Shown here: positions 11,444 through 27,807 of the stretch, piece by piece
Position numbering within the stretch: position 1 is the stretch's first letter
How the letters are laid out: each line of letters begins with the position of its first letter
Assembly: GCA_035708725.1 (NCBI GenBank)
Contig: DASTFH010000003.1
Coordinates: forward strand, 16,828 to 80,827
Length of the DNA: 64,000 nucleotides
Origin: Gemmatimonadales bacterium
GTDB lineage: Bacteria; Gemmatimonadota; Gemmatimonadetes; Gemmatimonadales; GWC2-71-9
Reading direction: 5' to 3'
Notes under the pieces: generated by a model
Database searches by the model: none
Told to the model about the DNA's origin: nothing
Seen by the model: only the letters and a program-made list of their open reading frames with translations
Program-made: the position numbers and the translations under genes

Positions 11444-11569
11444 GGCGGACGAGGCGAACGAGGCGAACGAGGCGGACGAGGCGGACGAGGCGGACGAGGC
11501 GGACGAGGCGGACGAGGCGAGCCGAAGCTTGCCCGCTGGCACCAGTCCGCCCAGTCCGCCCTGTCCGTC
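11444..11569. repeat. Tandem 9-mer array (GGCGRACGA, ~8 copies) followed by inverted GTCCGCC words
   Basis: ggcggacgaggcgaacgaggcgaacgaggcggacga... then cagtccgcccagtccgccctgtccgtc. Lies between convergent genes (YfcC-like and trxC), so a probable long terminator hairpin. Confidence 0.8.
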
Positions 11570-12009
11570 TAGCCGACTAATCCCTCAAGCACCCGCTCAT
11601 CGGCCAGCCCCGTGTGCCGCCCGGACTCCGTGCCGCCGCGGAATGCGATGAGCGTGGGAATCCCGCGAATCCCGAACTTCTGAGCCGTGGCCGGATTGGC
11701 GTCGGTGTCGAGCTTGAGCACCAGCACCTGGCCGGTCCGGGCAGTGGCGAAGCTGTCGAGCGTGGGCGCCATCATCCGGCAGGGGCCGCACCAGTCGGCG
11801 TAGAAGTCCACCAGTACCGGCACGGTGCTCCCCTGGATCACCTTCTCGAAGTCCGCATCAGTCACCTTGATGGGCCGGTCCAGCCGCAAGGGCCTGTGGC
11901 ACTCGGCGCAGGTCGGCTTGTCGGCCAGGCGGGCCATGTTCACCCGGTTGAGCCGGCCGCAGAAAATGCAGCGGGCCACGGCGTGACGTGTGCTCGTTGC
12001 GTCGCTCAT
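11569..12009 (-). CDS. trxC: Thioredoxin 2-type thioredoxin with N-terminal zinc finger
   Basis: CIFCGRLNRV...CAECHRPL zinc finger plus a WCGPC active site. Start at MSDATS, with GGGAGAG upstream. Confidence 0.85.
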   Translation of the reverse strand: MSDATSTRHAVARCIFCGRLNRVNMARLADKPTCAECHRPLRLDRPIKVTDADFEKVIQGSTVPVLVDFYADWCGPCRMMAPTLDSFATARTGQVLVLKLDTDANPATAQKFGIRGIPTLIAFRGGTESGRHTGLADERVLEGLVG

Positions 12010-12137
12010 CACATCTCTCCCGGTGTAGGGGCGGCTCGCAGCCGTACCCCGGCACGGCGAGGCTGCCGCCCGGCACCAATAATGCATCCAGCGGGACGAG
12101 CGGGAAACATTCAGACCGAAACGCGGGTTCCTGAACT

Positions 12138-12560: not shown

Positions 12561-12697
12561 TCCTCCGTCGTCGGCTATTGGTCGTCGGTTGACGCTGATG
12601 GCCGACGACCCTCCCGCTGTCCCCCTCCCCCGGATTCCGTTAGTATTCGAGTCTATTCCGGCCCCCGCCGGCGCCGTCCCTCGTGCTCAGGAACGTC

Positions 12698-13672
12698 ATG
12701 GCCCTCACCGATTCCGCCCGCCAGCTGCTCTCCAAAGTCGAAGTCCTCAAGGACCTCGAGGCCAAGGTGCGCCAGCTCATGAGAGCGCACGAGGAGAAGC
12801 GCGAGCTGTGGTTTCCGAGTGAGCTGATCGGGCCCGGCCCGGATGAATGCCCCGAGACGCACCGCGCGGAGCTCAAGAAGCGGGCAGAAGGGATTCCCGA
12901 TGCGGTGCGGGCGGCACTGGCGCTCAATCTTCTGACCGAAGAAGGGCTGCCGCATTTCCACCGCCTGCTCGCCGTGTACCTCGATGACGACAGCTACTGG
13001 CGGTCATGGAACAACCTCTGGACCGCAGAAGAGGACCGGCACGGCCAGGTACTGCACGACTACACCCGCGATGCCGAGCTCTTCAAGCAGCGCCGGCTCG
13101 AGGAGATGCAGTTCGAGTACCTGAAGGCCGGGTTCCATCCGGCGTGGGACAAGGATCCTTACCGGGTCTTTGCCTACACCACGGTGCAGGAGCGCGCCAC
13201 CCAGTTCTCCCATGCAGCCACCGGCCAGCTCATCGCCGAGCATGACGAGCGGCTCGCCATGATTCTCGACCGGATCGCGCGTGAGGAGGCCCGCCATTTT
13301 GCCTTCTACCGCACCATCATGCAGGAAATCCTGGAGCGGGATCCCAACCAGGCGCTCGAGTCGATCGTGCAGGTTCTACCGAGCATCGACATGCCGGGCC
13401 ACAGCATGCCCGGCTTCCGCGAGATCGCTGACGTGATCCGGCGTTCCGGCATCTATGGCCCGCGCGACTACCTGCGCATCGTCCAGGAGCAGATCAAGTT
13501 CTGGAAGATCGAGACGCTCGAGGGGCTCTCGGAGCTGGGCCGCGTGGCCCAGGACAAGATCCTCGCCATTCCGGACCGGCTCCGGCGAGTGGCCGATGCC
13601 ATCGAGACGCGCAGCAAGGCCAAGACCTTCAGCTTCGACGTGGTCTTCAACCGGGAATTCGCCCTCGAATGA
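12698..13672 (+). CDS. Acyl-ACP desaturase (soluble di-iron fatty acid desaturase)
   Basis: Di-iron motifs EEDRHG and EEARH. AGGAA lies upstream of the ATG at 12698. Confidence 0.85.
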   Translation: MALTDSARQLLSKVEVLKDLEAKVRQLMRAHEEKRELWFPSELIGPGPDECPETHRAELKKRAEGIPDAVRAALALNLLTEEGLPHFHRLLAVYLDDDSYWRSWNNLWTAEEDRHGQVLHDYTRDAELFKQRRLEEMQFEYLKAGFHPAWDKDPYRVFAYTTVQERATQFSHAATGQLIAEHDERLAMILDRIAREEARHFAFYRTIMQEILERDPNQALESIVQVLPSIDMPGHSMPGFREIADVIRRSGIYGPRDYLRIVQEQIKFWKIETLEGLSELGRVAQDKILAIPDRLRRVADAIETRSKAKTFSFDVVFNREFALE

Positions 13673-14115: not shown

Positions 14116-14258
14116 CCGATGCCTGTGACGTCATTGCACGCGAAGGCACGAAGGCACGAGGGCGCGGTGTGGCCTTCGGCAGCAACCGCAATTTCCCGGT
14201 TTTCGTGCTGTCGTGCGAGCCACGTTGCCGCAAGCCTCACCTCATCGATTCCAGCCTA

Positions 14259-14840
14259 GTGGCACTTCCGGCGATCTATCTTGGACTGCGGATCGTGGTA
14301 GCCGCCGCGTTTCTCTTCACGCTCGTCGTCGCGTTCACGCACTGGATGGTGCAGCAGCAGAAGCTCGCGCCCTTCAGTGCGTGGCCCAGGGCCATCCGGC
14401 GGGTGAGCGATCCGCTGCTGCGGCCGATCGAGCGGCGGCTGCTGCGCTCGGGCGGCAATCCCCAGAATGCTCCCCTCTGGCTCGCTGGACTCACGCTCGC
14501 CTCTGGCCTGATTGTGCTCTGGCTCTTCCGGTGGGTCGTTGGGGCCATCGTCTCGCTGGCCTACGCAGCCCAGGGCGGCCCCCGCTTCTGGGTCGCGCAG
14601 GTGGTGCACTGGACGTTCTCCATCGTGGAGATCGCACTGATCGTGCGGGTGCTGGGCAGCTGGATCGGTGCGAACGAGCACTCCAGGTGGATGCGCCCAT
14701 GCGTGTTGCTCACCGAATGGCTGCTGGTCCCGCTCCGCCGCTTTGTCCCGCCACTGGGCATGATCGACATCACGCCGCTGATTGCCTACTTCCTGCTTGT
14801 GCTCGCGGAACGGGCGGCGTTGGGGATACTGCTGTCGTAG
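14259..14840 (+). CDS. YggT-family membrane protein (two YggT repeats)
   Basis: Two YggT-like repeats (...DPLLRPIERRL... and ...LTEWLLVPLRRFVPPLGMIDITPLIAYFLL). Followed by yggU as in many genomes. The GTG start is uncertain (track ORF begins at 14169). Confidence 0.6.
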   Translation: MALPAIYLGLRIVVAAAFLFTLVVAFTHWMVQQQKLAPFSAWPRAIRRVSDPLLRPIERRLLRSGGNPQNAPLWLAGLTLASGLIVLWLFRWVVGAIVSLAYAAQGGPRFWVAQVVHWTFSIVEIALIVRVLGSWIGANEHSRWMRPCVLLTEWLLVPLRRFVPPLGMIDITPLIAYFLLVLAERAALGILLS

Positions 14841-15146: not shown

Positions 15147-18110
15147 TCACTCCAGTGCCGCCGCCTCCGCCCTGATGCGGTCCACCTCCGGCTGTAGCGC
15201 CGGCTCGGGATGCGCGCGGAGCGCCAGGTAGTGACCGTACGCCGCACGGGCCTTCGCCTTGTCACCCGTGAGACTCGCGAGTCGGCCTTCCTCGCGGTAC
15301 AGCGTTGAGAGGGCCACCTGTACCCGTTGCGCGCCCGCGTCGGCCACGGGCGCCCGGCGCTCGACCACGCCGAGCCCCTTGGAGTAGTCGCCGAGTTCGG
15401 AGTAGAGCTCTGCCAGGGTCAGGTTCCCCAGCGTCACAGCCCAGGAGTTCAGGTACGGGTCGAGCACGCGGGGTGAGTCGAGCGCCGCCACCAGGCGCGG
15501 AGCCTCGGGGCTGTGGCGGTAGACCGCCCGTCGGGCCTCCAGCACTCGCAGGCAAATATCCACCACATCGTCGCGCTCCTCCGGTGCCACCCGCTCGAGC
15601 ACGGCAACCAGCGGCGGGATCCGATCCCATTCGCCGTGAGCGGCACGCCAGAGCGCCAGCCCGACGGCAGCAAGCTGTTGATCAGGAGTCGGCACGGCGC
15701 GCCCCGCGGCCAGTACTTCGAGCCCGGGTTCAGACCGTGCGATGGTTGCGGCGGCAAGGGTGGTATCGCCGTCCCAGTAGAGCGCGGAGAAGATGGTCGC
15801 GAAATCGTGATACAGGCCGGTCGCATCGGCAGCGGTCGCGGCCTGCATGAGCCGGGCAGCTTCCGAGGGCCTGCCCTGATTGAGCGCCAGCTCCGCCTGG
15901 CGCTGGAAGGCCCGAATGAGGTCGTGCGCGGCACCACTGCGCCGCTGCAGTTCGCGCGCCGCCGCCACCGCATCATCGAGCCCCACGCCTTCCACTTCTG
16001 CAGCTGAGATGAGCCGATCCAGCGTGGCATAGCTCTGCGATGCCATGGCACTCCGGAAGCTCTTCAGCGCCGTGGTATCACCCAGGGATGCGGCAATCAG
16101 CCAGCGGTAGTATTCGGCAAGATCGCCATCCGGATCCAGCGCCAGGTAGCGGCCTCCGAGACGCCGCACGCTCGCCGTGTCGCCGCGCGCCGCCTCGATC
16201 TCGAGCAGATGACCCAGCGCCGGCACATACGTCGAGTCGATGTCCAGCGCCTTCCGAAAGGCCGCGGCGGCCCGGTCACGTGCTCCCGCCAAGCCCGCCC
16301 AGGTCTGCTGGTTGAGCACCAGGCCGAACTGCAGCCAGATGTCGGGCCGCCTCGGGGCCGTGGTCGCCATCTCGCACAGGGAGTAATAGGCCATGGTATC
16401 CCGCACGGCGATCGGGACGCTCTCCGGCAGGAATTCCCGATTGAGGCAGGGAAGGAAGCGTGCATCCGTCATGGGCAGGTCGGCCTTGCGGGCCTTGAGC
16501 CAGCGGGTCACCGAATCAACGCCACGGTTGTTGGACAGCTGCCCCGCCATGAGCCAGCCGATGCCCGCCACGACAAGTGACGAGTCCTGTTCAATCGCGT
16601 CGGCATAATGCGACGCGGCGGCAGCGTAGTGCCCGCTCCCAAACTCATGTTCCGCCTGGAGAAAGGCACGCAGCGCTGGCAGCGCCGACTGCCGCATGGC
16701 GGCACGCTGCTCGGCTGGTTGTCCCGCGAGCGAGATGAGAAGTCCGGCGGCAAGCTGATCCGCAAGCGGGCCAAGCCGACTCATGGTGCCGCCCACCCCT
16801 GCCACGCTGGCCAGCTCCGCTCCATCACTGGATGATTCGATCGTTGCCGTAACGTTGAGCGAGTCACCCGAGGTGAGCACTTGCCCGCGCAGCATCAGGC
16901 CGCTTCCCAATGCCATTGCAAGCTCCCGAACATGCCGCTGGTCCAGCACGCCTGGCGCCAGGTCGAAGCGCCGCAGTGCCGCCTGCACGCCGGATGGTTC
17001 CGCCGCGCGCGGCCCGCCCTGTCCCGTGAAGCGCTCGGCGAGCAGGTTGGCCAGCGCGAGCCCGGCGGCGGCGGCTTGCGAGTCGCCGGGATTGGCTGGG
17101 GTTAGCGGCAGGATGGCGACGCGATCTGGGTCGAGCGGCGGGGTCCGGCGATGGCTGGCGACCAGGCGCCATGCGAGGATGGCGCCGACGATGGACACCA
17201 GGAGCGCGGCCGCGATGAGCCAGGGGCGCCGCCGCCGCAGCCGCGGCACGGCAAGCGACGCGCGGCTCCAGGCGGGAAATGATTCGCCCCTGAGGACCCG
17301 CGCAAGCTCTCCCGAACTGGAGAATCGGTCGGCCGGGTTCTTGGCCAGCGCCCGGTGGATTGCCCCCTCGACGATCTCGGGCACCACATCGCGCACGGCC
17401 CGAATGCTGGGAACCCGTTCCACGGCGTGGCGAGCAAACACCTGCTGCACCGACGCGCCGGTGAATGGCGGTTCGCCAACCAGCATCTCGTACAACACGC
17501 AGCCGAGACTGTACTGATCGGAGCGCGGATCAAGCCGCGCGGAGCTGCCGACCTGCTCCGGGCTCATGTACATCGGCGTGCCGACGACGAGCCCCGAGGA
17601 GGTCAGCACTCCCTGGTCCTGTTCCAGGGCGTGAGCCAGGCCGAAATCTGCGACGAGCGCGTGCCCGCCACTCAGGAGAATGTTGCCCGGCTTGATATCA
17701 CGATGGACCACGCCCTCCTTGCCGGCGTAGTCGAGCGCGTCGGCCACTTCGGCGCCGATGGCGAGCGCATCCTCGAGTGGCAACGGTCCTTCCCGCCGAA
17801 GCCGCGCCGCGAGCGACTCGCCCTTGATGACAGGCATGACATAGAACAGCAGGCCGTCGGCATCGCCACTGTCGTACAGCGGGACGATGCCCGGGTGGCT
17901 CAGCCGCGCCGCCACCCGGACTTCGCGAACGAACCGCTGATGCCCGAGGGATGCGGCGAGTTCAGGGGAGAGCACCTTGACGGCAACGTCACGATCGTGA
18001 CGAAGATCATGTGCCAGGAAGACGACCGCCATGCCGCCCCGCCCCAGCTCGCCCTGGACGGTGTAGCGATCGCCGAGGGCGTGCGCGAGTCGGTCGAGAA
18101 GTTCACTCAT
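15147..18110 (-). CDS. Membrane Ser/Thr protein kinase with a large extracytoplasmic TPR-containing region
   Basis: Start at MSELLDRLAHALGDRYTVQGELGRGGMAVV. Kinase motifs VAVK, HRDIKPGN, DFG, SPEQ. One TM segment (PWLIAAALLVSIVGAILAWRLV), then ~650 aa with TPR-like repeats. Its ATG overlaps the upstream stop by 8 nt (ATGAGTGA). Confidence 0.85.
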   Translation of the reverse strand: MSELLDRLAHALGDRYTVQGELGRGGMAVVFLAHDLRHDRDVAVKVLSPELAASLGHQRFVREVRVAARLSHPGIVPLYDSGDADGLLFYVMPVIKGESLAARLRREGPLPLEDALAIGAEVADALDYAGKEGVVHRDIKPGNILLSGGHALVADFGLAHALEQDQGVLTSSGLVVGTPMYMSPEQVGSSARLDPRSDQYSLGCVLYEMLVGEPPFTGASVQQVFARHAVERVPSIRAVRDVVPEIVEGAIHRALAKNPADRFSSSGELARVLRGESFPAWSRASLAVPRLRRRRPWLIAAALLVSIVGAILAWRLVASHRRTPPLDPDRVAILPLTPANPGDSQAAAAGLALANLLAERFTGQGGPRAAEPSGVQAALRRFDLAPGVLDQRHVRELAMALGSGLMLRGQVLTSGDSLNVTATIESSSDGAELASVAGVGGTMSRLGPLADQLAAGLLISLAGQPAEQRAAMRQSALPALRAFLQAEHEFGSGHYAAAASHYADAIEQDSSLVVAGIGWLMAGQLSNNRGVDSVTRWLKARKADLPMTDARFLPCLNREFLPESVPIAVRDTMAYYSLCEMATTAPRRPDIWLQFGLVLNQQTWAGLAGARDRAAAAFRKALDIDSTYVPALGHLLEIEAARGDTASVRRLGGRYLALDPDGDLAEYYRWLIAASLGDTTALKSFRSAMASQSYATLDRLISAAEVEGVGLDDAVAAARELQRRSGAAHDLIRAFQRQAELALNQGRPSEAARLMQAATAADATGLYHDFATIFSALYWDGDTTLAAATIARSEPGLEVLAAGRAVPTPDQQLAAVGLALWRAAHGEWDRIPPLVAVLERVAPEERDDVVDICLRVLEARRAVYRHSPEAPRLVAALDSPRVLDPYLNSWAVTLGNLTLAELYSELGDYSKGLGVVERRAPVADAGAQRVQVALSTLYREEGRLASLTGDKAKARAAYGHYLALRAHPEPALQPEVDRIRAEAAALE

Positions 18111-20469
18111 GCGCCGGCCCGGGAGAGGGCCACCCCTCCGGCTCGAAGAGCGGATGACAACTTCGTGCCGGCAGGGCCAGCTCCTGCTCCAGCAGCGCTG
18201 CCCCGAGCGCACCCTTGTACAGCGATAGCGTGCCCGATGCACCACGCGGAAACCCGCGCGCCGTCCGCCGCTGAAGCCGCCGTGCACGATCCAGCCATGC
18301 CGGCGCCCCGGTGGCCCGGTACAGTGCAAGCAAGGCATAGCTTCTGCCGGCCAGGCCGCAGCAGAGGTCGGGCATGAGGTCGGGAGCCTCCCACGCACTC
18401 CAGCCACATCGTTCGGCGAGCGCCTCGTAGCGGCGCTGTCCGGTGACCTGCGCCGCCAGAATCCAGAGATGCACCAGGCCGGCGGGCCCGTTGCACCAGC
18501 CGGGGATGTCATGGTGGCTGCCGGTCCCGCTGGCGTGAGGAAACTGCACACCGCTTCCCCGCGGCTCCGCCAGGCGACGCAACACACCGAGGGCGCGCGC
18601 CACGGCCGGCGTGGGCTCGACGCCGGCAACGCGGCACCAGCGGAGCAATGCGTAGAGAACGCCACCCCAGCCGTGGACAATGCCGGCGTTCTGCAGTGGT
18701 CCCGGATCAGCCGGAAAGCGATCGAGCGCGGGGAGCGACGCGTCGAGCCGCTCCGCCAGGGCGCGGCCGAGCTGCCAGAGATGATGGCGCGCCGTGACCA
18801 GTTCCGGCGGCGCACACTCCAGCAGCAGCATTGCTCCCAGCAGCACGCCGGCAATCCCCTGGCCCAGCTCGATCCTCACCTCTCTTGCTACGGGCAATGC
18901 GCAGAATTGCTCGATGATGGCCGTCATGCGTGAGCCCTGGCCGGTGGCCTGGGCCACATGCGCATCCACCAGCAGGAGGCCGGAGGCGGTAAACAATGGC
19001 GCGACGCTGCCGGCCACAGGCGCGCTGAGCCCCTGGCGGGGATTCAGGAATGCCCCGCGGCGGGCGGCAGCGAGCCTGGCGACTTCGCACCAGCCGGTCG
19101 CATGGGAGAGCAGTCGAGGATCGTCGCGGAGCACCGCCAGGCGGTAGAGACCGAATGCCGTTCCGGCCATGCCATGCATGACAGAGCATCGCGGCGGGGA
19201 CAGGCGCCTGACCCAGTCGGGCGGCGAATGGCGCTCCAGCGTCCGCAACCATGCATCGGTCCTGCTGCGAGGCGGGATCGCGGGTGACGACGCGACCGGC
19301 GGAAGCGCGCACCGCGTCAGCGCGCCGGCGAGCGCGCGCACCGAGGGGAAGCGCTCGTGCTCCTCGTGAGCCAGCGCCCGTGCGAGGACTGCTTCGAGTT
19401 CGGGCCACGGCGCCGCACCCTGCGCGGCAAATGGAAGCGGCGGCCGTGCGGTGAGAGCGCGAAGCATGGCCTCGCGATCCTGCATCGGACCGACGTGGGT
19501 AGCGCCGGTCGCGAGATGATAGAGCAGCGCGGCAATGGCAAACTGCTCACCCGCCGCGGACAACGGCGGCGGCGTTCCGCCGTGCAGCCAGGCGTCGGCC
19601 AGCAGGGGCTCGGCGTAGGGAAGCACGGCGCCGCGCTCGCACTCCCGCCGCCCGGCAACGCGGCTCAGCCCGTAATCCAGAATCGTGACTCGGCCGCTGG
19701 GGTCCACGAGCAGGTTGCCGGCATGGACGTCACCATGCAGGACCCGCCGGGCGTGCAGTCGCGCGTATGCCCGGGCGACGCGAATCAGCAGGCGAAGAAG
19801 CGCTGCCTGTCCGGCCTGGCCCTGGGATCGCAGTTCAGCAGCACGTACCAGGGGCGAGACGCCGCTGCGCCATGACATGGCCAGCCACGCCCGGCCTTCG
19901 ACCGTCCCGGATTCCCGGAAGCGGGGAGCATCGCGCCCCCGCAACAGCCGCAATGCGAGACATTCCTGCCGCATGGCGGCGCGTAAGCGGCCCTCAGCGC
20001 CGGAACGGGCAATCTTGAGCGCGGAGATCTGTCCCCCCGCGTTCCGGACCTGGTACAGCTCTGAATCCTCCAGGACCATCACCGAACGAATGATGACGTA
20101 GTCGGCAATCCGCTCACCCTTGTCGAAGGACGGGGCAATCCGGGCGGCGTCCGGCGAGTGGGCCGGAACCAGGATCCGGTCCTCGTAGCAGGCGCGCAGG
20201 AGGGGAAATGCTTCAGCAAGGGCCTCACGTGGGTCGCGCTGGTCGCCGTCAGCGATCAGCGCATCCACGATGCGCGTGGGGCTCCGGAAGCGCTGCAGCA
20301 GGAGCGCGGCATCGTGCCCAATCACCTTGGAAGAGGCGCGCACCCGGGCTCGGCCAACGGCGTATCCACGCGGCACGGCAGGAAGCCGGCGGCGCAGCGC
20401 ACCGGGAAGCTCGGCGAGCGGCCTCAGCAGGACATCGTCGGGAAGTACGAGCGGGTCAGTGAGCGCCAT
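18103..20469 (-). CDS. Protein kinase-like domain fused to a LanC-like (lanthionine cyclase) domain
   Basis: Kinase-like motifs ISALKIAR, HGDVHAGNLLVD, ILDYGLS. LanC-like motifs HGMAGTAFGLY, GIAGVLLG, HGWGGVLYAL, GWCNGPAG and DLCCGLAG (Cys codons at 18358-18363). Only ~125 aa precede the kinase. Confidence 0.8.
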   Translation of the reverse strand: MALTDPLVLPDDVLLRPLAELPGALRRRLPAVPRGYAVGRARVRASSKVIGHDAALLLQRFRSPTRIVDALIADGDQRDPREALAEAFPLLRACYEDRILVPAHSPDAARIAPSFDKGERIADYVIIRSVMVLEDSELYQVRNAGGQISALKIARSGAEGRLRAAMRQECLALRLLRGRDAPRFRESGTVEGRAWLAMSWRSGVSPLVRAAELRSQGQAGQAALLRLLIRVARAYARLHARRVLHGDVHAGNLLVDPSGRVTILDYGLSRVAGRRECERGAVLPYAEPLLADAWLHGGTPPPLSAAGEQFAIAALLYHLATGATHVGPMQDREAMLRALTARPPLPFAAQGAAPWPELEAVLARALAHEEHERFPSVRALAGALTRCALPPVASSPAIPPRSRTDAWLRTLERHSPPDWVRRLSPPRCSVMHGMAGTAFGLYRLAVLRDDPRLLSHATGWCEVARLAAARRGAFLNPRQGLSAPVAGSVAPLFTASGLLLVDAHVAQATGQGSRMTAIIEQFCALPVAREVRIELGQGIAGVLLGAMLLLECAPPELVTARHHLWQLGRALAERLDASLPALDRFPADPGPLQNAGIVHGWGGVLYALLRWCRVAGVEPTPAVARALGVLRRLAEPRGSGVQFPHASGTGSHHDIPGWCNGPAGLVHLWILAAQVTGQRRYEALAERCGWSAWEAPDLMPDLCCGLAGRSYALLALYRATGAPAWLDRARRLQRRTARGFPRGASGTLSLYKGALGAALLEQELALPARSCHPLFEPEGWPSPGPAHE

Positions 20470-21595
20470 GGAGCGCCCTCGAGAGCCCGGAAGCGCGCCC
20501 GGACGGCGCCCAGGTGCGAACGTCTACGCCGTCAAGCGATACTCGCTCCATGGCATAGCACCAGGACGGCACGGCACACCCTGGATCCTTGAGCGCCTGC
20601 ACCATCGCCGTGGCGAGCCGCTGCGTGAGCCAGGCCCGCCAGCTGTCGTCGCCACTCCATGGAGCGGCGGCGCCCTGGCCTCCCGGATCCACGCCCCACG
20701 AGAGGAGCGCCGAGGCGCCTGTCTGCCCGGTGAACGGCACGCCATGGGCCGGCACACCAGCGAGATCGCGCTCGAGTTGGCGCGCAGCCCGGGCCAGCTG
20801 CCGCGGCGTATTGAAGTACAGCACCAGCTTGTCGGGACGCAGGATGTTGGCAACATCCCGGCCCACTTTCATGGCAAAGGCATCACGCTGCCGCGACGCG
20901 GCCCCGAGCGCCGGCACCAGCTGGTCGGGCACCGGGCTGACGTAGAGCTTCCAGACGGCGCCAGGAGCGCTGCTGCATCCGGCCCGCTCCCATGAGAGCC
21001 AAGCCCCCTTCCCCGCTGTCACGGCAGCGTCCAGTCCCGCCGAGCGAGGGACGCATCGCCGAAGCTCGCGCTCGAGCGAGAGGGAATCGGGGTAACGGCT
21101 TCGCCAGGCCGGGCTCGCGGGAAGGGTGTTGAAATGGTAGAGAAGGCGCGCGAGTACGGTGGGGGAGGCAAGCTGCAGCGCCCCGGCGTCCTGCATTGCG
21201 GCAAGGGACAGCATACCGGTGGCGGACCGCGGTTCCGTCTCCTTCCCGACAGGAAGGCAACAGGACCGCGCGGCGGCCCCGCTCAGGTAGCGCCGACCCG
21301 CGTGAATTTCCAGCACGCCATCAAGCACCAGCGCGCGGAGCGCGCGCGACGGCACCGACCGGGGAGCCCGTCCCGGCCGAGCAAGACGCTGAAAGAGCCG
21401 CGCTGTGTCGCGGGTGACGACGCGCTGGACCCGAAAGTCATCAGCCGCGGGAACCAGCAGGCCGCCAAAGGCAGGATGGGTGGCATGCGCCCGGAGCCAG
21501 GTCGGGAGGGGAGGTTGGAGGGCTCCTGGCTCCACGAGACGGTAGCTGGCGGACGCCCGGAACAGGCGAGCTGAGAGCGGCGGAACTGGCGCCAT
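20456..21595 (-). CDS. Hypothetical protein, possibly a HopA1-like phospho-Ser/Thr lyase (function tentative)
   Basis: ATG at 21595 is the first start after the hairpin. 14-nt overlap with the kinase-LanC start. The C-terminal pattern WKLYVSP...FAMKVG...RPDKLVLYF...GVPF matches my recollection of HopA1-family proteins; not verified. Confidence 0.55.
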   Translation of the reverse strand: MAPVPPLSARLFRASASYRLVEPGALQPPLPTWLRAHATHPAFGGLLVPAADDFRVQRVVTRDTARLFQRLARPGRAPRSVPSRALRALVLDGVLEIHAGRRYLSGAAARSCCLPVGKETEPRSATGMLSLAAMQDAGALQLASPTVLARLLYHFNTLPASPAWRSRYPDSLSLERELRRCVPRSAGLDAAVTAGKGAWLSWERAGCSSAPGAVWKLYVSPVPDQLVPALGAASRQRDAFAMKVGRDVANILRPDKLVLYFNTPRQLARAARQLERDLAGVPAHGVPFTGQTGASALLSWGVDPGGQGAAAPWSGDDSWRAWLTQRLATAMVQALKDPGCAVPSWCYAMERVSLDGVDVRTWAPSGRASGLSRALHGAH

Positions 21596-21609
21596 GGGTG
21601 TACCGGAAA

Positions 21610-21639
21610 CCACCCGGCGCACGGGGGTGCGCCGGGTGG
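21610..21639 (-). terminator. Perfect 13-bp GC-rich hairpin between the peptide ORF and the next gene (candidate attenuator or partial terminator)
   Basis: Minus-strand RNA ccacccggcgcac-cccc-gtgcgccgggtgg followed by uuucc. Starts 12 nt after the peptide stop and ends 15 nt before the next ATG. Confidence 0.6.
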
Positions 21640-21650
21640 CAGTGGGCGGG

Positions 21651-21857
21651 TCAGGCCAGCGCTGCTTCGAGCTGAAGCCGAAGGTCGTCCAGTTCGCCAT
21701 CGGCGATCTTCGGTTTCTTCTGCGTGGTGTTGGTGCATGCACCGCAATTGGTGGGCTGCTTGCAGGGGCCATCCTTGTCCCCGTCGGCCCATGCCAGCTC
21801 GCCCGATTCCGACGCGCTCACCGGCATCATCACATCCCTGCTCTCGAACCTGTTCAT
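21651..21857 (-). CDS. 68-aa Cys/Thr-rich small protein, candidate RiPP precursor peptide
   Basis: GGGAGG lies 6 nt upstream of the ATG. About 80% G/C at third codon positions (hand count). Sequence MNRFESRDVMMPVSASESGELAWADGDKDGPCKQPTNCGACTNTTQKKPKIADGELDDLRLQLEAALA. First gene of the kinase-LanC operon. Confidence 0.6.
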   Translation of the reverse strand: MNRFESRDVMMPVSASESGELAWADGDKDGPCKQPTNCGACTNTTQKKPKIADGELDDLRLQLEAALA

Positions 21858-22011: not shown

Positions 22012-22110
22012 GGTCGAGGGGTCGAGGGGTCAAGAAATCGACTTTGACGCCTCGACTGCTTGACTCCTCGACTTCTTGACCTCTCGACCCTCGACCCTCG
22101 ACCCTCGACC
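22012..22110. repeat. Inverted GTCGAGG/CCTCGAC word arrays in a divergent promoter region
   Basis: ggtcgaggggtcgaggggtcaag...cctcgactgcttgactcctcgacttcttgacctctcgaccctcgaccctcgaccctcgacc. Confidence 0.8.
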
Positions 22111-22113
22111 CCC

Positions 22114-23406
22114 ATGCCCCGCGCCCAACGCCCCACGCCCTTCCACATCCACAGCATCGCCTTTGCCTACCCCGGCAATCGCGAGGCGATTGCGCTGCGG
22201 TCTCCGGCCACCGACCGGCTGCTCAGCGAGCACGCCGAATGGATCCGACAGGAGCGCTCGGCGCCGGTGGCATACGTGCGGGGCGCGCGGCCGCATATCC
22301 GCGTAGTGTGCCGCCGGGTCGCCGGACCAGCGAAGCTGACGGCGGTCATCGGCGCCAGCGCTCGCGGCAAGGCCGTCGGCGTAGCCGAGCGCCGTGTGCG
22401 ACTGGTGTTTGGACGGAATGGCCTTTCGCAGCCGGTGCTGTTCCGCCTGTCGCGGGCGTTACCGAAGGCAGTGGGCGTCCAGCGGATCCGCTGGAGCTGG
22501 ATCGGCAAGGTCGGCGACGTACGCATGCCGCTGGGCGAATCGGAACACGAAATCTGCCTGGCCTGGCGGCGGCCTCGCGCGGCTGAAGCGTGGGCCGGCA
22601 TCGGTGAGTTCAAGGGTCACCCACCATGGGTCTACGCCCCGGTCATGCAGTGGACCTGTGCCTGGGCAGCTGGCCGGAATGATCCGAAGGCCATCTGCGA
22701 CGCGATCCTGCGGCGACTGCCTGCGTCCGGACTCAGCTACGCCAAGCCGGCGTGGGACGTGCGAAGCATGCTCAGTGCAGGAGGTGGCTACTGCGGCGGC
22801 TGGTACCGGATGTTCCAGGCCATGGCGGCGGCACAAGGCGTCGCGGTCGAACGGCGATCTTTCCTGGTCAACTGGCAGAACGAACGCGGAGGGCGGGCAC
22901 GATGGTGCGCCATCGTGGTGGGGAAACCTGGCATCAATCGCGAGACCGTGGCCGAAGCTGCAAGCACTTTCCATGACGTGCGCCAGCGACCGGTGAAGGA
23001 GGCGCCAGTTCGCTCCACCACGGTGGCGCGCTACCGCTTCTGGGGCGTGCCCGAGAAACTGGGCGACGGGCATTGCGTCAACTTCCTGCGCCATGAGGGA
23101 CGCTGGTACCTGTATGATGCCTGCTTCCTGTCGCAACCCGTGGCATTGCCCGGCTTCTCACTGCCCCGCTCCGACACCACCCGTGCCATTCCCCTGGGAA
23201 AACTCGGTGCGTTCCGCTCCCGCTATCTCGATCACGCCGTGGGCTACATGCTCGGCTCGTTTCGGAAGGACGGGCGTCTCTTCCGCACCGTGCATCCCGA
23301 CCCGGGCGATCCCAGGTTCGGCAAGCAGCCGGTCCTCAACGGGCTGAGCATCCGCACACCGATCGTGCCCAGGCCTGGCCAGCTCATTTCCTTCTACTGG
23401 GTCTGA
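22114..23406 (+). CDS. Transglutaminase-like (papain-fold) cysteine peptidase-like protein, no signal peptide seen
   Basis: Candidate Cys-His-Asp triad in GGGYCGGWYRMF and GDGHCVNFLRHEGRWYLYDACF. Start at M19, after the repeat-derived codons. Confidence 0.65.
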   Translation: MPRAQRPTPFHIHSIAFAYPGNREAIALRSPATDRLLSEHAEWIRQERSAPVAYVRGARPHIRVVCRRVAGPAKLTAVIGASARGKAVGVAERRVRLVFGRNGLSQPVLFRLSRALPKAVGVQRIRWSWIGKVGDVRMPLGESEHEICLAWRRPRAAEAWAGIGEFKGHPPWVYAPVMQWTCAWAAGRNDPKAICDAILRRLPASGLSYAKPAWDVRSMLSAGGGYCGGWYRMFQAMAAAQGVAVERRSFLVNWQNERGGRARWCAIVVGKPGINRETVAEAASTFHDVRQRPVKEAPVRSTTVARYRFWGVPEKLGDGHCVNFLRHEGRWYLYDACFLSQPVALPGFSLPRSDTTRAIPLGKLGAFRSRYLDHAVGYMLGSFRKDGRLFRTVHPDPGDPRFGKQPVLNGLSIRTPIVPRPGQLISFYWV

Positions 23407-23409
23407 ACC

Positions 23410-23754
23410 ATGTCCGTCGCCCACCAGCACCTCAGGCGCTGTCTCGCGGGAGACCTGATCCACGGCCAGCGCGCCACCTGGCCGCGCGCCATGGCGCTCA
23501 TGCATGCCGTCGCATCGGCCGAGAGCGCCGAGTCTGAAGCAGTGCTTCGAGAAGTCGCCCTGTACGACGGCCGGTTGCAGCTCGACGCCTCGGCGGGCCT
23601 CCCGCACGCCATGTCGCCCGAGGACGCGCTGCGCGCGCTGGCCGTGCAGGTGCTCGCGGCGTGGAATCCTCGCCGCCATCGGGCGGTGATCCGTGCGGTG
23701 CATCGCTCGGCGCGGAACGATGTGGTGCGGAAGATTGCGGAGGAGAGGGTGTAG
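23410..23754 (+). CDS. Hypothetical 114-aa helical protein coupled to the transglutaminase-like gene
   Basis: Starts 3 nt after the upstream stop codon. No recognisable family. Confidence 0.5.
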   Translation: MSVAHQHLRRCLAGDLIHGQRATWPRAMALMHAVASAESAESEAVLREVALYDGRLQLDASAGLPHAMSPEDALRALAVQVLAAWNPRRHRAVIRAVHRSARNDVVRKIAEERV

Positions 23755-24064: not shown

Positions 24065-24102
24065 CGTCCGCTCGGGCCGTTTTGGCATCGGGCGGTTGTC
24101 AT

Positions 24103-27803
<3,701 letters not shown>

Positions 27804-27807
<4 letters not shown>

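Follow-up and report, generated by a model that had tools for sequence, protein, structure and literature searches.

A stand-alone HopA1/LanY-like protein encoded beside a kinase-LanC enzyme in Gemmatimonadales, a candidate lyase subunit of a split lanthipeptide-type synthetase

This paper deals with a 379-amino-acid protein encoded on the minus strand (20456..21595) of a 64,000-nucleotide stretch of a Gemmatimonadales bacterium (assembly GCA_035708725.1, contig DASTFH010000003.1, positions 16,828 to 80,827), the whole of which is called the window. With a probability of about 75%, this protein is the trans-acting lyase subunit of a split, two-polypeptide synthetase of a class IV/V-hybrid lanthipeptide type with unusual precursors. 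In a preliminary description of the window, made from the sequence alone, a HopA1-like lyase had been proposed for this gene. This proposal, which concerns a predicted activity, is supported by the fold, by the match of seven of 38 relatives to the HopA1 family PF17914 and by the residue spacing shared with the lyase CaoY. The lyase reading is further favoured because of its conserved context, as a kinase-LanC protein devoid of a lyase domain is always encoded next door.

The lyase-like protein

The open reading frame (ORF), as read from the window sequence, extends from 21595 to 20456 and consists of 379 codons followed by a stop codon. The ORF announced in the preliminary description is real and is located on the minus strand, which had been left unstated; the string AVWKLYVSPVPDQLVPALGAASRQRDAFAMKVGRDVANILRPDKLVLYFNTPRQLARAARQLERDLAGVPAHGVPFTGQ quoted from it is found verbatim in the translation, and the motif series KLYVSP, FAMKVG and RPDKLVLYF is present, with key residues that are invariant among 260 relatives. 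The gene codes for a stand-alone, HopA1/LanY-like putative phosphoserine/phosphothreonine (pSer/pThr) lyase.

For the protein, an AlphaFold2 model based on an alignment of 38 sequences was obtained with a predicted local distance difference test (pLDDT) score of 88.3 and a predicted template modelling (TM) score of 0.88. In a Foldseek comparison to the PDB, the best match was HopA1 (4rsx, E 2.9e-7, TM-score 0.58 on the target), followed by LxmY of the lexapeptide dehydratase LxmKY (9dk2_B, E 6.3e-7; 9dk1-3_B at about 7e-7) and a further HopA1 structure (4rsw, E 1.2e-5). The HopA1 and LxmY matches have a probability of 1.00 and TM-scores of 0.43-0.58 on the target, which assigns the protein to the HopA1/LanY structural family. 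Further matches were identified to the lyase domains of CuvL from class IV and of ThurKC, SalKC and PneKC from class III, and to SpvC, VirA and OspF; all 23 PDB matches with E<0.05 are pSer/pThr lyases. The structural comparison named in the preliminary description as a check thus put HopA1 and LxmY first. At ranks 30-34 of the same model (mbdfa553a96af), weak matches to trypanosome eIF4E5 were listed. Phosphothreonine lyases and BLES03/eIF4E-like proteins have a common fold (PMC4159009).

The lyase-like part is formed by the C-terminal domain (residues ~193-379; 20459..21019, minus strand), which contains the conserved strands carrying K216 and K243 and to which the HopA1 and RamC_N matches of a relative, P0095, project. 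Within this domain, the motif block from KLYVSP to RPDKLVLYF (20813..20950, minus strand) contains the putative catalytic residues K216 (20948-20950), K243 (20867-20869), R253 (20837-20839) and Y260 (20816-20818), and also Y218. When 260 family members were aligned by MAFFT, no variation was seen at K216, Y218, K243, R253, D255, P287, S318 and R320; conservation is 99% for K256 and Y260 and 98.5% for R351. Judged from this alignment, the conservation of the motifs is far beyond chance.

For the class V lyase CaoY, which has been aligned with SpvC, mutagenesis revealed that K219 (the base, K136 in SpvC), R187 (at the K104 position) and R229 (R148) matter for phosphate elimination, with mutants in which the elimination is abolished or impaired, while Y236 (Y158) is conserved and the acid His106 is missing from LanY enzymes (PMC9486802). 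The spacing of K243, R253 and Y260, with 10 and 7 residues, is the same as that of K219, R229 and Y236 in CaoY, so that the Lys base, the Arg and the Tyr of pSer/pThr lyases are represented by these three residues. In a comparison of the family profile with SpvC by hhalign, for which the SpvC sequence was taken from plasmid pSLT, K216 was aligned with K104, Y218 with H106 and K243 with K136; this alignment is weak (E 0.04, probability 1.3%) and is in agreement with the inference rather than a proof of it. Following this weak alignment, the Lys of the K-x-H pair of the OspF/LanL type would be kept as the invariant K216, and the invariant Y218 would be found at the place of the His. The active site therefore looks intermediate on the sequence level, with a Lys at the K104 position like OspF and LanL, no His like LanY, and an invariant Tyr instead.

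The family is annotated solely as "hypothetical protein". More than 1331 homologs were identified by a word-indexed search, and an exhaustive profile search resulted in 1593 clusters (50% identity), of which 1125 reached E<=1e-30; the top 150 relatives have lengths of 349-474 amino acids. The alignment of 38 sequences spans 34-82% identity, with a typical identity to the window protein of 34-41%. PF17914, with a gathering cut-off of 22.7 bits, was matched at E<1 by seven of the 38 relatives, and of these only P0095 was above the cut-off (E 5.3e-6, 26.9 bits) with a match that projects onto residues 214-358 of the window protein and covers all three motifs. PF25816 (RamC_N), which we take to be the lyase domain of class III synthetases, was matched weakly and over the motif region by five of the 38, with the match of P0095 projecting onto residues 197-251. 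The search with PF17914, also named in the preliminary description, hence gave matches for these relatives, in one case above the cut-off, and was negative for the window protein itself, which is, like most family members, below the gathering score.

The N-terminal ~170 amino acids had been left unassigned in the preliminary description; they are better described as a family-specific domain of ~190 amino acids (residues 1-192; 21020..21595, minus strand), not common to HopA1 or LxmY. The segment has no match in Pfam. When a model of this domain only (pLDDT 79) was compared to the PDB by Foldseek, nothing significant was identified, and HopA1 and LxmY were absent from the match list; therefore, the domain is considered to be a family-specific addition. 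Among the 20 best matches, all of them non-significant, six were to TigE, TbtB, MccB, ThcOx, MibB and TglHI, which we take to be enzymes of peptides that are made by the ribosome and modified after translation (RiPPs), with RiPP recognition element (RRE) or peptide-clamp domains; for the best of these, ~100-110 columns were aligned at a root-mean-square deviation of 3.5-5 Å. These model-based matches are suggestive only, and a peptide-binding, RRE-like domain is a lead and not a finding; a docking domain may be considered as well.

An alternative start of the gene was also considered. A longer reading from an ATG at 21772 would code for 438 amino acids and would overlap, in another frame, with a conserved ORF of 68 amino acids (21857..21651); the resulting N-terminal extension is missing in the ortholog of locus L001, which is 57% identical. 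For both reasons ATG 21595 is the better start, and the 438-amino-acid reading was rejected. The gene calls in databases for this protein and its close orthologs start upstream of the position of ATG 21595 (P0001 with 414 amino acids, P0005 and P0006 with 413; window 21596-21772, minus strand) and continue, in the other frame, across the conserved small ORF's 3' end. These extensions are probably mis-calls which hide the gene for the candidate precursor described below. Promoter and terminator scans of the operon gave nothing informative.

The kinase-LanC partner, the candidate precursor and further neighbours

Downstream of the lyase gene, a 788-amino-acid partner enzyme is encoded (18103..20469, minus strand), which is composed of ~137 N-terminal amino acids, a Ser/Thr kinase domain and a LanC-like cyclase domain, and is devoid of a lyase domain. 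Pkinase (PF00069) was identified at residues 138-326 (19492-20058) and LANC_like (PF05147) at residues 427-760 (18190-19191), and residues 1-130 have no match in Pfam. The best NCBIfam model is LanL with 127.7 bits against a cut-off of 650, and the alignment starts only at position 235 of the 851 model positions; therefore, the lyase part is missing in the partner. The stop codon of the lyase gene and the start codon of the kinase-LanC gene are contained in an overlap of 14 nucleotides (20456..20469, minus strand), read directly as ATGGCGCTCACTGA. From this overlap it is concluded that the two genes are translationally coupled.

A kinase-LanC gene for a protein of ~790 amino acids is located directly downstream of the lyase gene, on the same strand, in all 84 loci, 80 of which were obtained by a scan that detected relatives in at least 218 species genomes; in two, the contig ends inside the kinase-LanC gene. 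The pair spans about eight bacterial phyla (Acidobacteriota, Gemmatimonadota, Actinomycetota, Bacillota, Pseudomonadota, Chloroflexota, Nitrospirota and WPS-2) and Nitrososphaerales archaea. Most hosts belong to the Acidobacteriota (Thermoanaerobaculia and Terriglobia), and others to the Gemmatimonadota; further hosts are Solirubrobacter pauli, Amaricoccus macauensis, Bacillus pfraonensis and Bacillus sp. Xin1, together with metagenome-assembled genomes (MAGs) assigned to WPS-2, Chloroflexota, Nitrospiraceae and Gammaproteobacteria and two archaeal MAGs of the Nitrososphaerales.

In 75 partner orthologs, the kinase residues K152, E169, D247, N252 and D265 and the cyclase residues H599, C659, C703 and C704 are conserved to at least 90%. 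The zinc site is the Cys-Cys-Cys variant with the motif CCG, and a zinc-binding LanC domain as required for class IV is present. A search with the partner revealed 106 homologs, nearly all with 705-940 amino acids and named "serine/threonine-protein kinase" or "lanthionine synthetase LanC family protein", and none of them carries PF17914 or RamC_N. A fused lyase-kinase-LanC form was looked for in the loci, the top 150 lyase relatives and the 106 kinase-LanC homologs, and none was found; long ORFs in four loci were rejected as such fusions, being out-of-frame artefacts. The description of the lyase as trans-acting is supported by the overlapping, lyase-free gene downstream and by a pairing kept in 84 of 84 loci. 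The kinase partner that had been expected is also present, but it is a Pkinase domain fused to LanC and differs from the APH-like kinase that is encoded on its own in class V and thioamitide systems.

Upstream of the lyase gene, the ORF of 68 amino acids (21651..21857, minus strand; MNRFESRDVMMPVSASESGELAWADGDKDGPCKQPTNCGACTNTTQKKPKIADGELDDLRLQLEAALA) was identified as a candidate precursor, with a recognition-like motif at the N-terminus, a core containing three Cys and four Thr, and an amphipathic helix at the C-terminus. The orthologs in L001 and L002 keep the pattern C..PT.CGACTNTT, and in comparison to L001, 31 codons are identical, 16 show synonymous changes only and 21 show amino acid changes. 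Of the 82 non-redundant loci searched upstream of the lyase gene with a hidden Markov model of the N-terminal motif, 73 contain at least one precursor-like ORF and 11 contain two; three of the nine loci that were missed are truncated by a contig edge.

The N-terminal motif of these ORFs reads M-x-F-[KR]-x-[KR]-D-L-M-x-x-V-x-P, with the variant MPK[VI][KR][DE]LG[VI]. The cores, which are hypervariable, have a high content of Gly, Thr, Pro, Cys and Ser (Cys 9.4%, Ser plus Thr 16.6%), with a median of eight Cys and 14 Ser/Thr and a maximum of 33 Cys. Many consist of tandem repeats, like CTDCTTQAFSICGTTPGP repeated seven times, CTPTPPD repeated five times, or ~25 (S/T)xC units in Solirubrobacter. 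The last Cys is followed by a conserved amphipathic helix, L-x-x-L-K-x-Q-L-x-x-A-L, often continuing as a coiled coil. No NCBIfam model matches the precursor ORFs. As expected for a lanthipeptide precursor, a recognition sequence and a core with Ser/Thr and Cys are encoded adjacent to the enzymes; conserved motifs at both termini are unusual. Leaders of class III and IV are recognised via an amphipathic helix that is bound by the kinase domain (PMC8341899, PMC10604976). By analogy, the helix of the present precursors, being located C-terminal to the core, may represent a follower rather than a leader.

Several loci differ in the number and arrangement of precursor units. Examples with two paralogs are L013, L009, L055, L066, L069 and L056, in which the cores differ and the terminal motifs are alike. 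On a plasmid of Paenibacillus peoriae HS311 (L087, 7014-7766), the upstream protein of 250 amino acids consists of three near-identical tandem units, each in the order helix, MFRTVDLAANV and a core with CGITCLASCG. On plasmid p1 of Bacillus paramycoides JYZ-SD5 (L086, 11760-13547), a "hypothetical protein" of 595 amino acids is encoded directly after the kinase-LanC gene; it contains 13 tandem Cys/Ser/Thr units of ~44 amino acids (LVCNGGQNAGQGFTANPIATNISAGGQCLPIVS...) and ends in a helix resembling that of the family, and is a candidate for a giant multi-core precursor. In two Nitrososphaerales MAGs (L073, 1862-2599; L079, 5214-5951), precursor, lyase and kinase-LanC protein are all encoded, and the precursor is made up of two motif-plus-helix units, the first with a core without Cys, the second with three Cys followed by a poly-Pro stretch.

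A third gene of the operon (15147..18110, minus strand) codes for a 987-amino-acid membrane Ser/Thr kinase with a tetratricopeptide repeat (TPR)-like C-terminal region, which is regarded as accessory. Its ATG overlaps the kinase-LanC stop codon by eight nucleotides (ATGAGTGA), and it is translationally coupled; the gene order is the same in L001 and L002. Membrane Ser/Thr kinases are the commonest neighbour of the pair, being present in 22 of about 82 loci, and are not universal. Genes for M1 or S8 peptidases are located near the pair in the three loci inspected for them: in L003 and L004 the pair is followed by genes for M1 peptidases, and in B. paramycoides S8 peptidase genes are found on both sides, at a distance of 0.6 kb upstream from the lyase gene and of 1.3 kb downstream from the gene for the repeat protein.

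On the opposite strand of the window, two divergent ORFs (22060-23406, 448 amino acids; 23410-23754, 114 amino acids; both plus strand) have no match in Pfam, NCBIfam or PADLOC and are conserved beside the cluster only in Gemmatimonadales loci, five of which contain the 448-amino-acid ORF. The larger protein contains a Cys...His...Asp pattern (GGYCGGWY, GDGHCVNF, WYLYDACF), which may resemble that of transglutaminase-like cysteine peptidases. The housekeeping neighbours at 24082-27807 (plus), 11569-12087 (minus), 12683-13672 (plus) and 14169-14840 (plus), with Pfam labels derived from the syntenic genes of L001 and L002, are a B12-dependent methionine synthase, a thioredoxin with a Zn-ribbon, a desaturase-like protein for acyl-acyl carrier protein and a YggT-family membrane protein, and they are syntenic with Gemmatimonadales MAG loci. 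A known anti-phage defence system was rejected, since PADLOC gave generic kinase-domain matches only and none for the lyase or the precursor.

Possible pathway and competing explanations

We infer the chemistry, a physical complex of the two enzymes and the precursor element bound by each protein as follows. The kinase domain of the partner, with its conserved kinase residues, would phosphorylate Ser and Thr residues in the core of the 68-amino-acid precursor. The HopA1/LanY-like C-terminal domain would then remove the phosphate by beta-elimination, resulting in dehydroalanine and dehydrobutyrine; here, K243 may act as the base for the alpha-proton, K216 may polarise the carbonyl, R253 may hold the phosphate and Y260 may assist, with Y218 placed where OspF and LanL have the catalytic acid His. 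In the last step, the Zn-LanC domain with its CCG motif would add the Cys thiols of the precursor to the dehydro residues and form (methyl)lanthionine thioether rings. As a speculative lead, the N-domain of the lyase (~190 amino acids) could bind the N-terminal motif of the precursor or dock on the kinase-LanC protein, while the C-terminal helix of the precursor may take the role of the leader helix which is bound by the kinase domain in class III and IV.

Several observations count against a lyase subunit of a lanthipeptide-type synthetase. The 379-amino-acid protein matched nothing in Pfam and NCBIfam with its full length, its N-terminal half or its C-terminal half, and for the C-terminal half hmmscan against Pfam gave nothing even at E<=10. 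When PDB sequences were searched by phmmer and hmmsearch with the window protein, the family profile and the most HopA1-like relative, chance matches only were obtained. The structural matches are partial (TM-scores of 0.37-0.58, 12-21% identity), which is to be expected of a remote relative that carries an additional domain. The alignment with SpvC is weak as statistics, and the acid His of OspF and LanL is replaced by Tyr in the family. No transporter or protease is conserved beside the triad of precursor, lyase and kinase-LanC genes in the neighbour survey of about 82 loci. Finally, the precursors are atypical for lanthipeptides in that their C-terminus forms a conserved helix or coiled coil and that they reach ~280 amino acids (595 amino acids on one Bacillus plasmid); the product may be something other than a classical secreted lanthipeptide.

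Some of these points would fit a different, though unlikely, function as an active pSer/pThr lyase on proteins, which would irreversibly erase the phosphosites of adjacent kinases like OspF and SpvC, with LanC adding a thiol cap to the dehydro residue, comparable to the use of glutathione by eukaryotic LanCL proteins. Such a function is suggested by the second, membrane-bound Ser/Thr kinase, which is translationally coupled in the window and located beside the pair in 22 loci, by the lack of a conserved exporter or protease, and by the grouping of kinase-linked LanC-like domains with human LanCL proteins (PMC7268733). However, the membrane kinase is missing from most loci, and in 73 of 82 loci the gene is immediately preceded by the hypervariable Cys/Ser/Thr-rich ORF with its conserved flanking recognition motifs, an arrangement characteristic of a dedicated substrate. 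The protein might also be a non-catalytic adaptor, in which a degenerate lyase fold and a peptide-binding N-domain present the precursor to kinase-LanC while elimination occurs elsewhere or nowhere. Here, the weak RRE-like structural matches of the N-domain, the score of the window protein below the HopA1 threshold of Pfam and the non-conserved His106 would be in agreement; yet the equivalents of the catalytic Lys, Arg and Tyr are invariant (Tyr 99%) in 260 sequences with 30-40% overall identity, and the partner is without any other lyase, which makes an adaptor very unlikely.

A misleading resemblance in fold, with an unrelated function that merely co-occurs with kinase-LanC, would be in line with the modest TM-scores and the lack of a significant profile match for the window protein. 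It is considered highly improbable, given that all 23 of the PDB matches with E<0.05 are pSer/pThr lyases, that the motif spacing is that of CaoY and that exactly this activity is missing from the partner. HopA1 of Pseudomonas syringae being the best structural match, a virulence protein of the HopA1 type delivered by type III secretion has also to be considered, and the chance of this is next to nil: kinase-LanC and a Cys-rich ORF accompany the gene in every case, be it in soil Acidobacteriota, Gemmatimonadota, Bacillus or archaea, the identity to HopA1 is 12-16%, and secretion genes were not listed in the called or annotated loci inspected, among which no systematic search was aimed at them.

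For the preferred reading as the lyase subunit of a split lanthipeptide-type synthetase, a wider conclusion can be considered. The triad, consisting of the precursor, the lyase with a possibly RRE-like N-domain and the Pkinase-LanC (CCG) protein, is widespread in Acidobacteriota and Gemmatimonadota and reaches plasmids of Bacillus and Paenibacillus and ammonia-oxidising archaea. That it represents an undescribed class of lanthipeptide machinery, a class IV/V split hybrid acting on large, hypervariable and often multi-unit precursors with an N-terminal motif and a helical "follower", is a proposal for which the odds appear to be even. If true, the products may be heavily thioether-crosslinked mini-proteins and not classical secreted lantibiotics. 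Besides soil phyla of which little has been cultured, the family is present in cultured strains of Bacillus, Paenibacillus, Cupriavidus, Amaricoccus and Solirubrobacter, and hence is testable.

Comparison with known systems

Like the LanY proteins of class V and thioamitide systems (CaoY, LxmY, TvaD/ThoD; PF17914), the 379-amino-acid protein is encoded as a stand-alone protein and is predicted to act in trans with a kinase; the fold is shared, with LxmY as the second-best structural match, and Lys base, Arg and Tyr are found at identical spacing. In contrast, the SpvC-K104 position is a Lys in the 379-amino-acid protein and an Arg (R187) in CaoY, and the extra N-terminal domain of ~190 amino acids has no counterpart in LxmY or HopA1. 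The partner is a Pkinase-Zn-LanC fusion here, whereas class V employs a stand-alone APH-like LanK together with LanX; a stand-alone APH-like kinase (PF01636) and a non-LanC cyclase, by which class V and thioamitide systems are recognised, are not what the locus encodes. HopA1 of P. syringae (4RSX, 4RSW), the best structural match, differs from the protein by its identity of 12-16% and as a secreted virulence protein with a chaperone-binding N-terminus, a context not present here.

The kinase and Zn-LanC architecture of the partner is that of the class IV LanL enzymes (VenL, SgbL, CuvL), the lyase domain of CuvL is a structural match, and the three-step chemistry would be alike. LanL is a single polypeptide with an N-terminal OspF-like K-x-H lyase, whereas a separate HopA1-like K-x-Y protein is present here, and the zinc motif is CHG in LanL and CCG in the partner. 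With its 127.7 bits against the LanL cut-off and no lyase domain of its own, the partner falls outside the definition of class IV as one polypeptide with three domains. With the SpvC/OspF lyases, the protein shares the fold superfamily and conserved equivalents of K104, K136, R148 and Y158; it differs in the exchange of the acid His106 for Tyr, in uncertain equivalents of R213 and R220 and in a marginal sequence similarity. BLES03-type stand-alone lyases (PMC4159009) were rejected as a different family, and the thioamitide "LanKCt" and class VI "LanKCb" enzymes as different systems. ProcM-type cyclases contain the same Cys-Cys-Cys zinc motif as the partner, and the precursors of the present system are hypervariable and sometimes multi-copy; ProcM differs in being a LanM of class II, the dehydratase domain of which is lipid-kinase-like. 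The CCG motif has been associated with substrate promiscuity (PMC13509491), and by analogy a similar promiscuity might apply to the kinase-LanC system.

Full-text literature searches revealed no description of a system consisting of a HopA1-like protein and kinase-LanC. "Class IV lanthipeptide" clusters have been reported in Acidobacteriota genomes and may include members of the present family. Genome mining by Pkinase and LANC_like has been described (PMC7268733), and rules needing only these two domains would label loci like the present one as class III or IV and would miss both the lyase, annotated as "hypothetical protein", and the long precursors. What defines a lanthipeptide class is the division of dehydration and cyclisation among proteins, and six classes were still counted in a paper from 2026. 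In comparison to these, the locus would represent a seventh arrangement, with a LanY-type lyase acting in trans beside a kinase-cyclase of the class IV type, and it bears on the gain, loss or swapping of lyase domains in the evolution of lanthipeptide synthetases.

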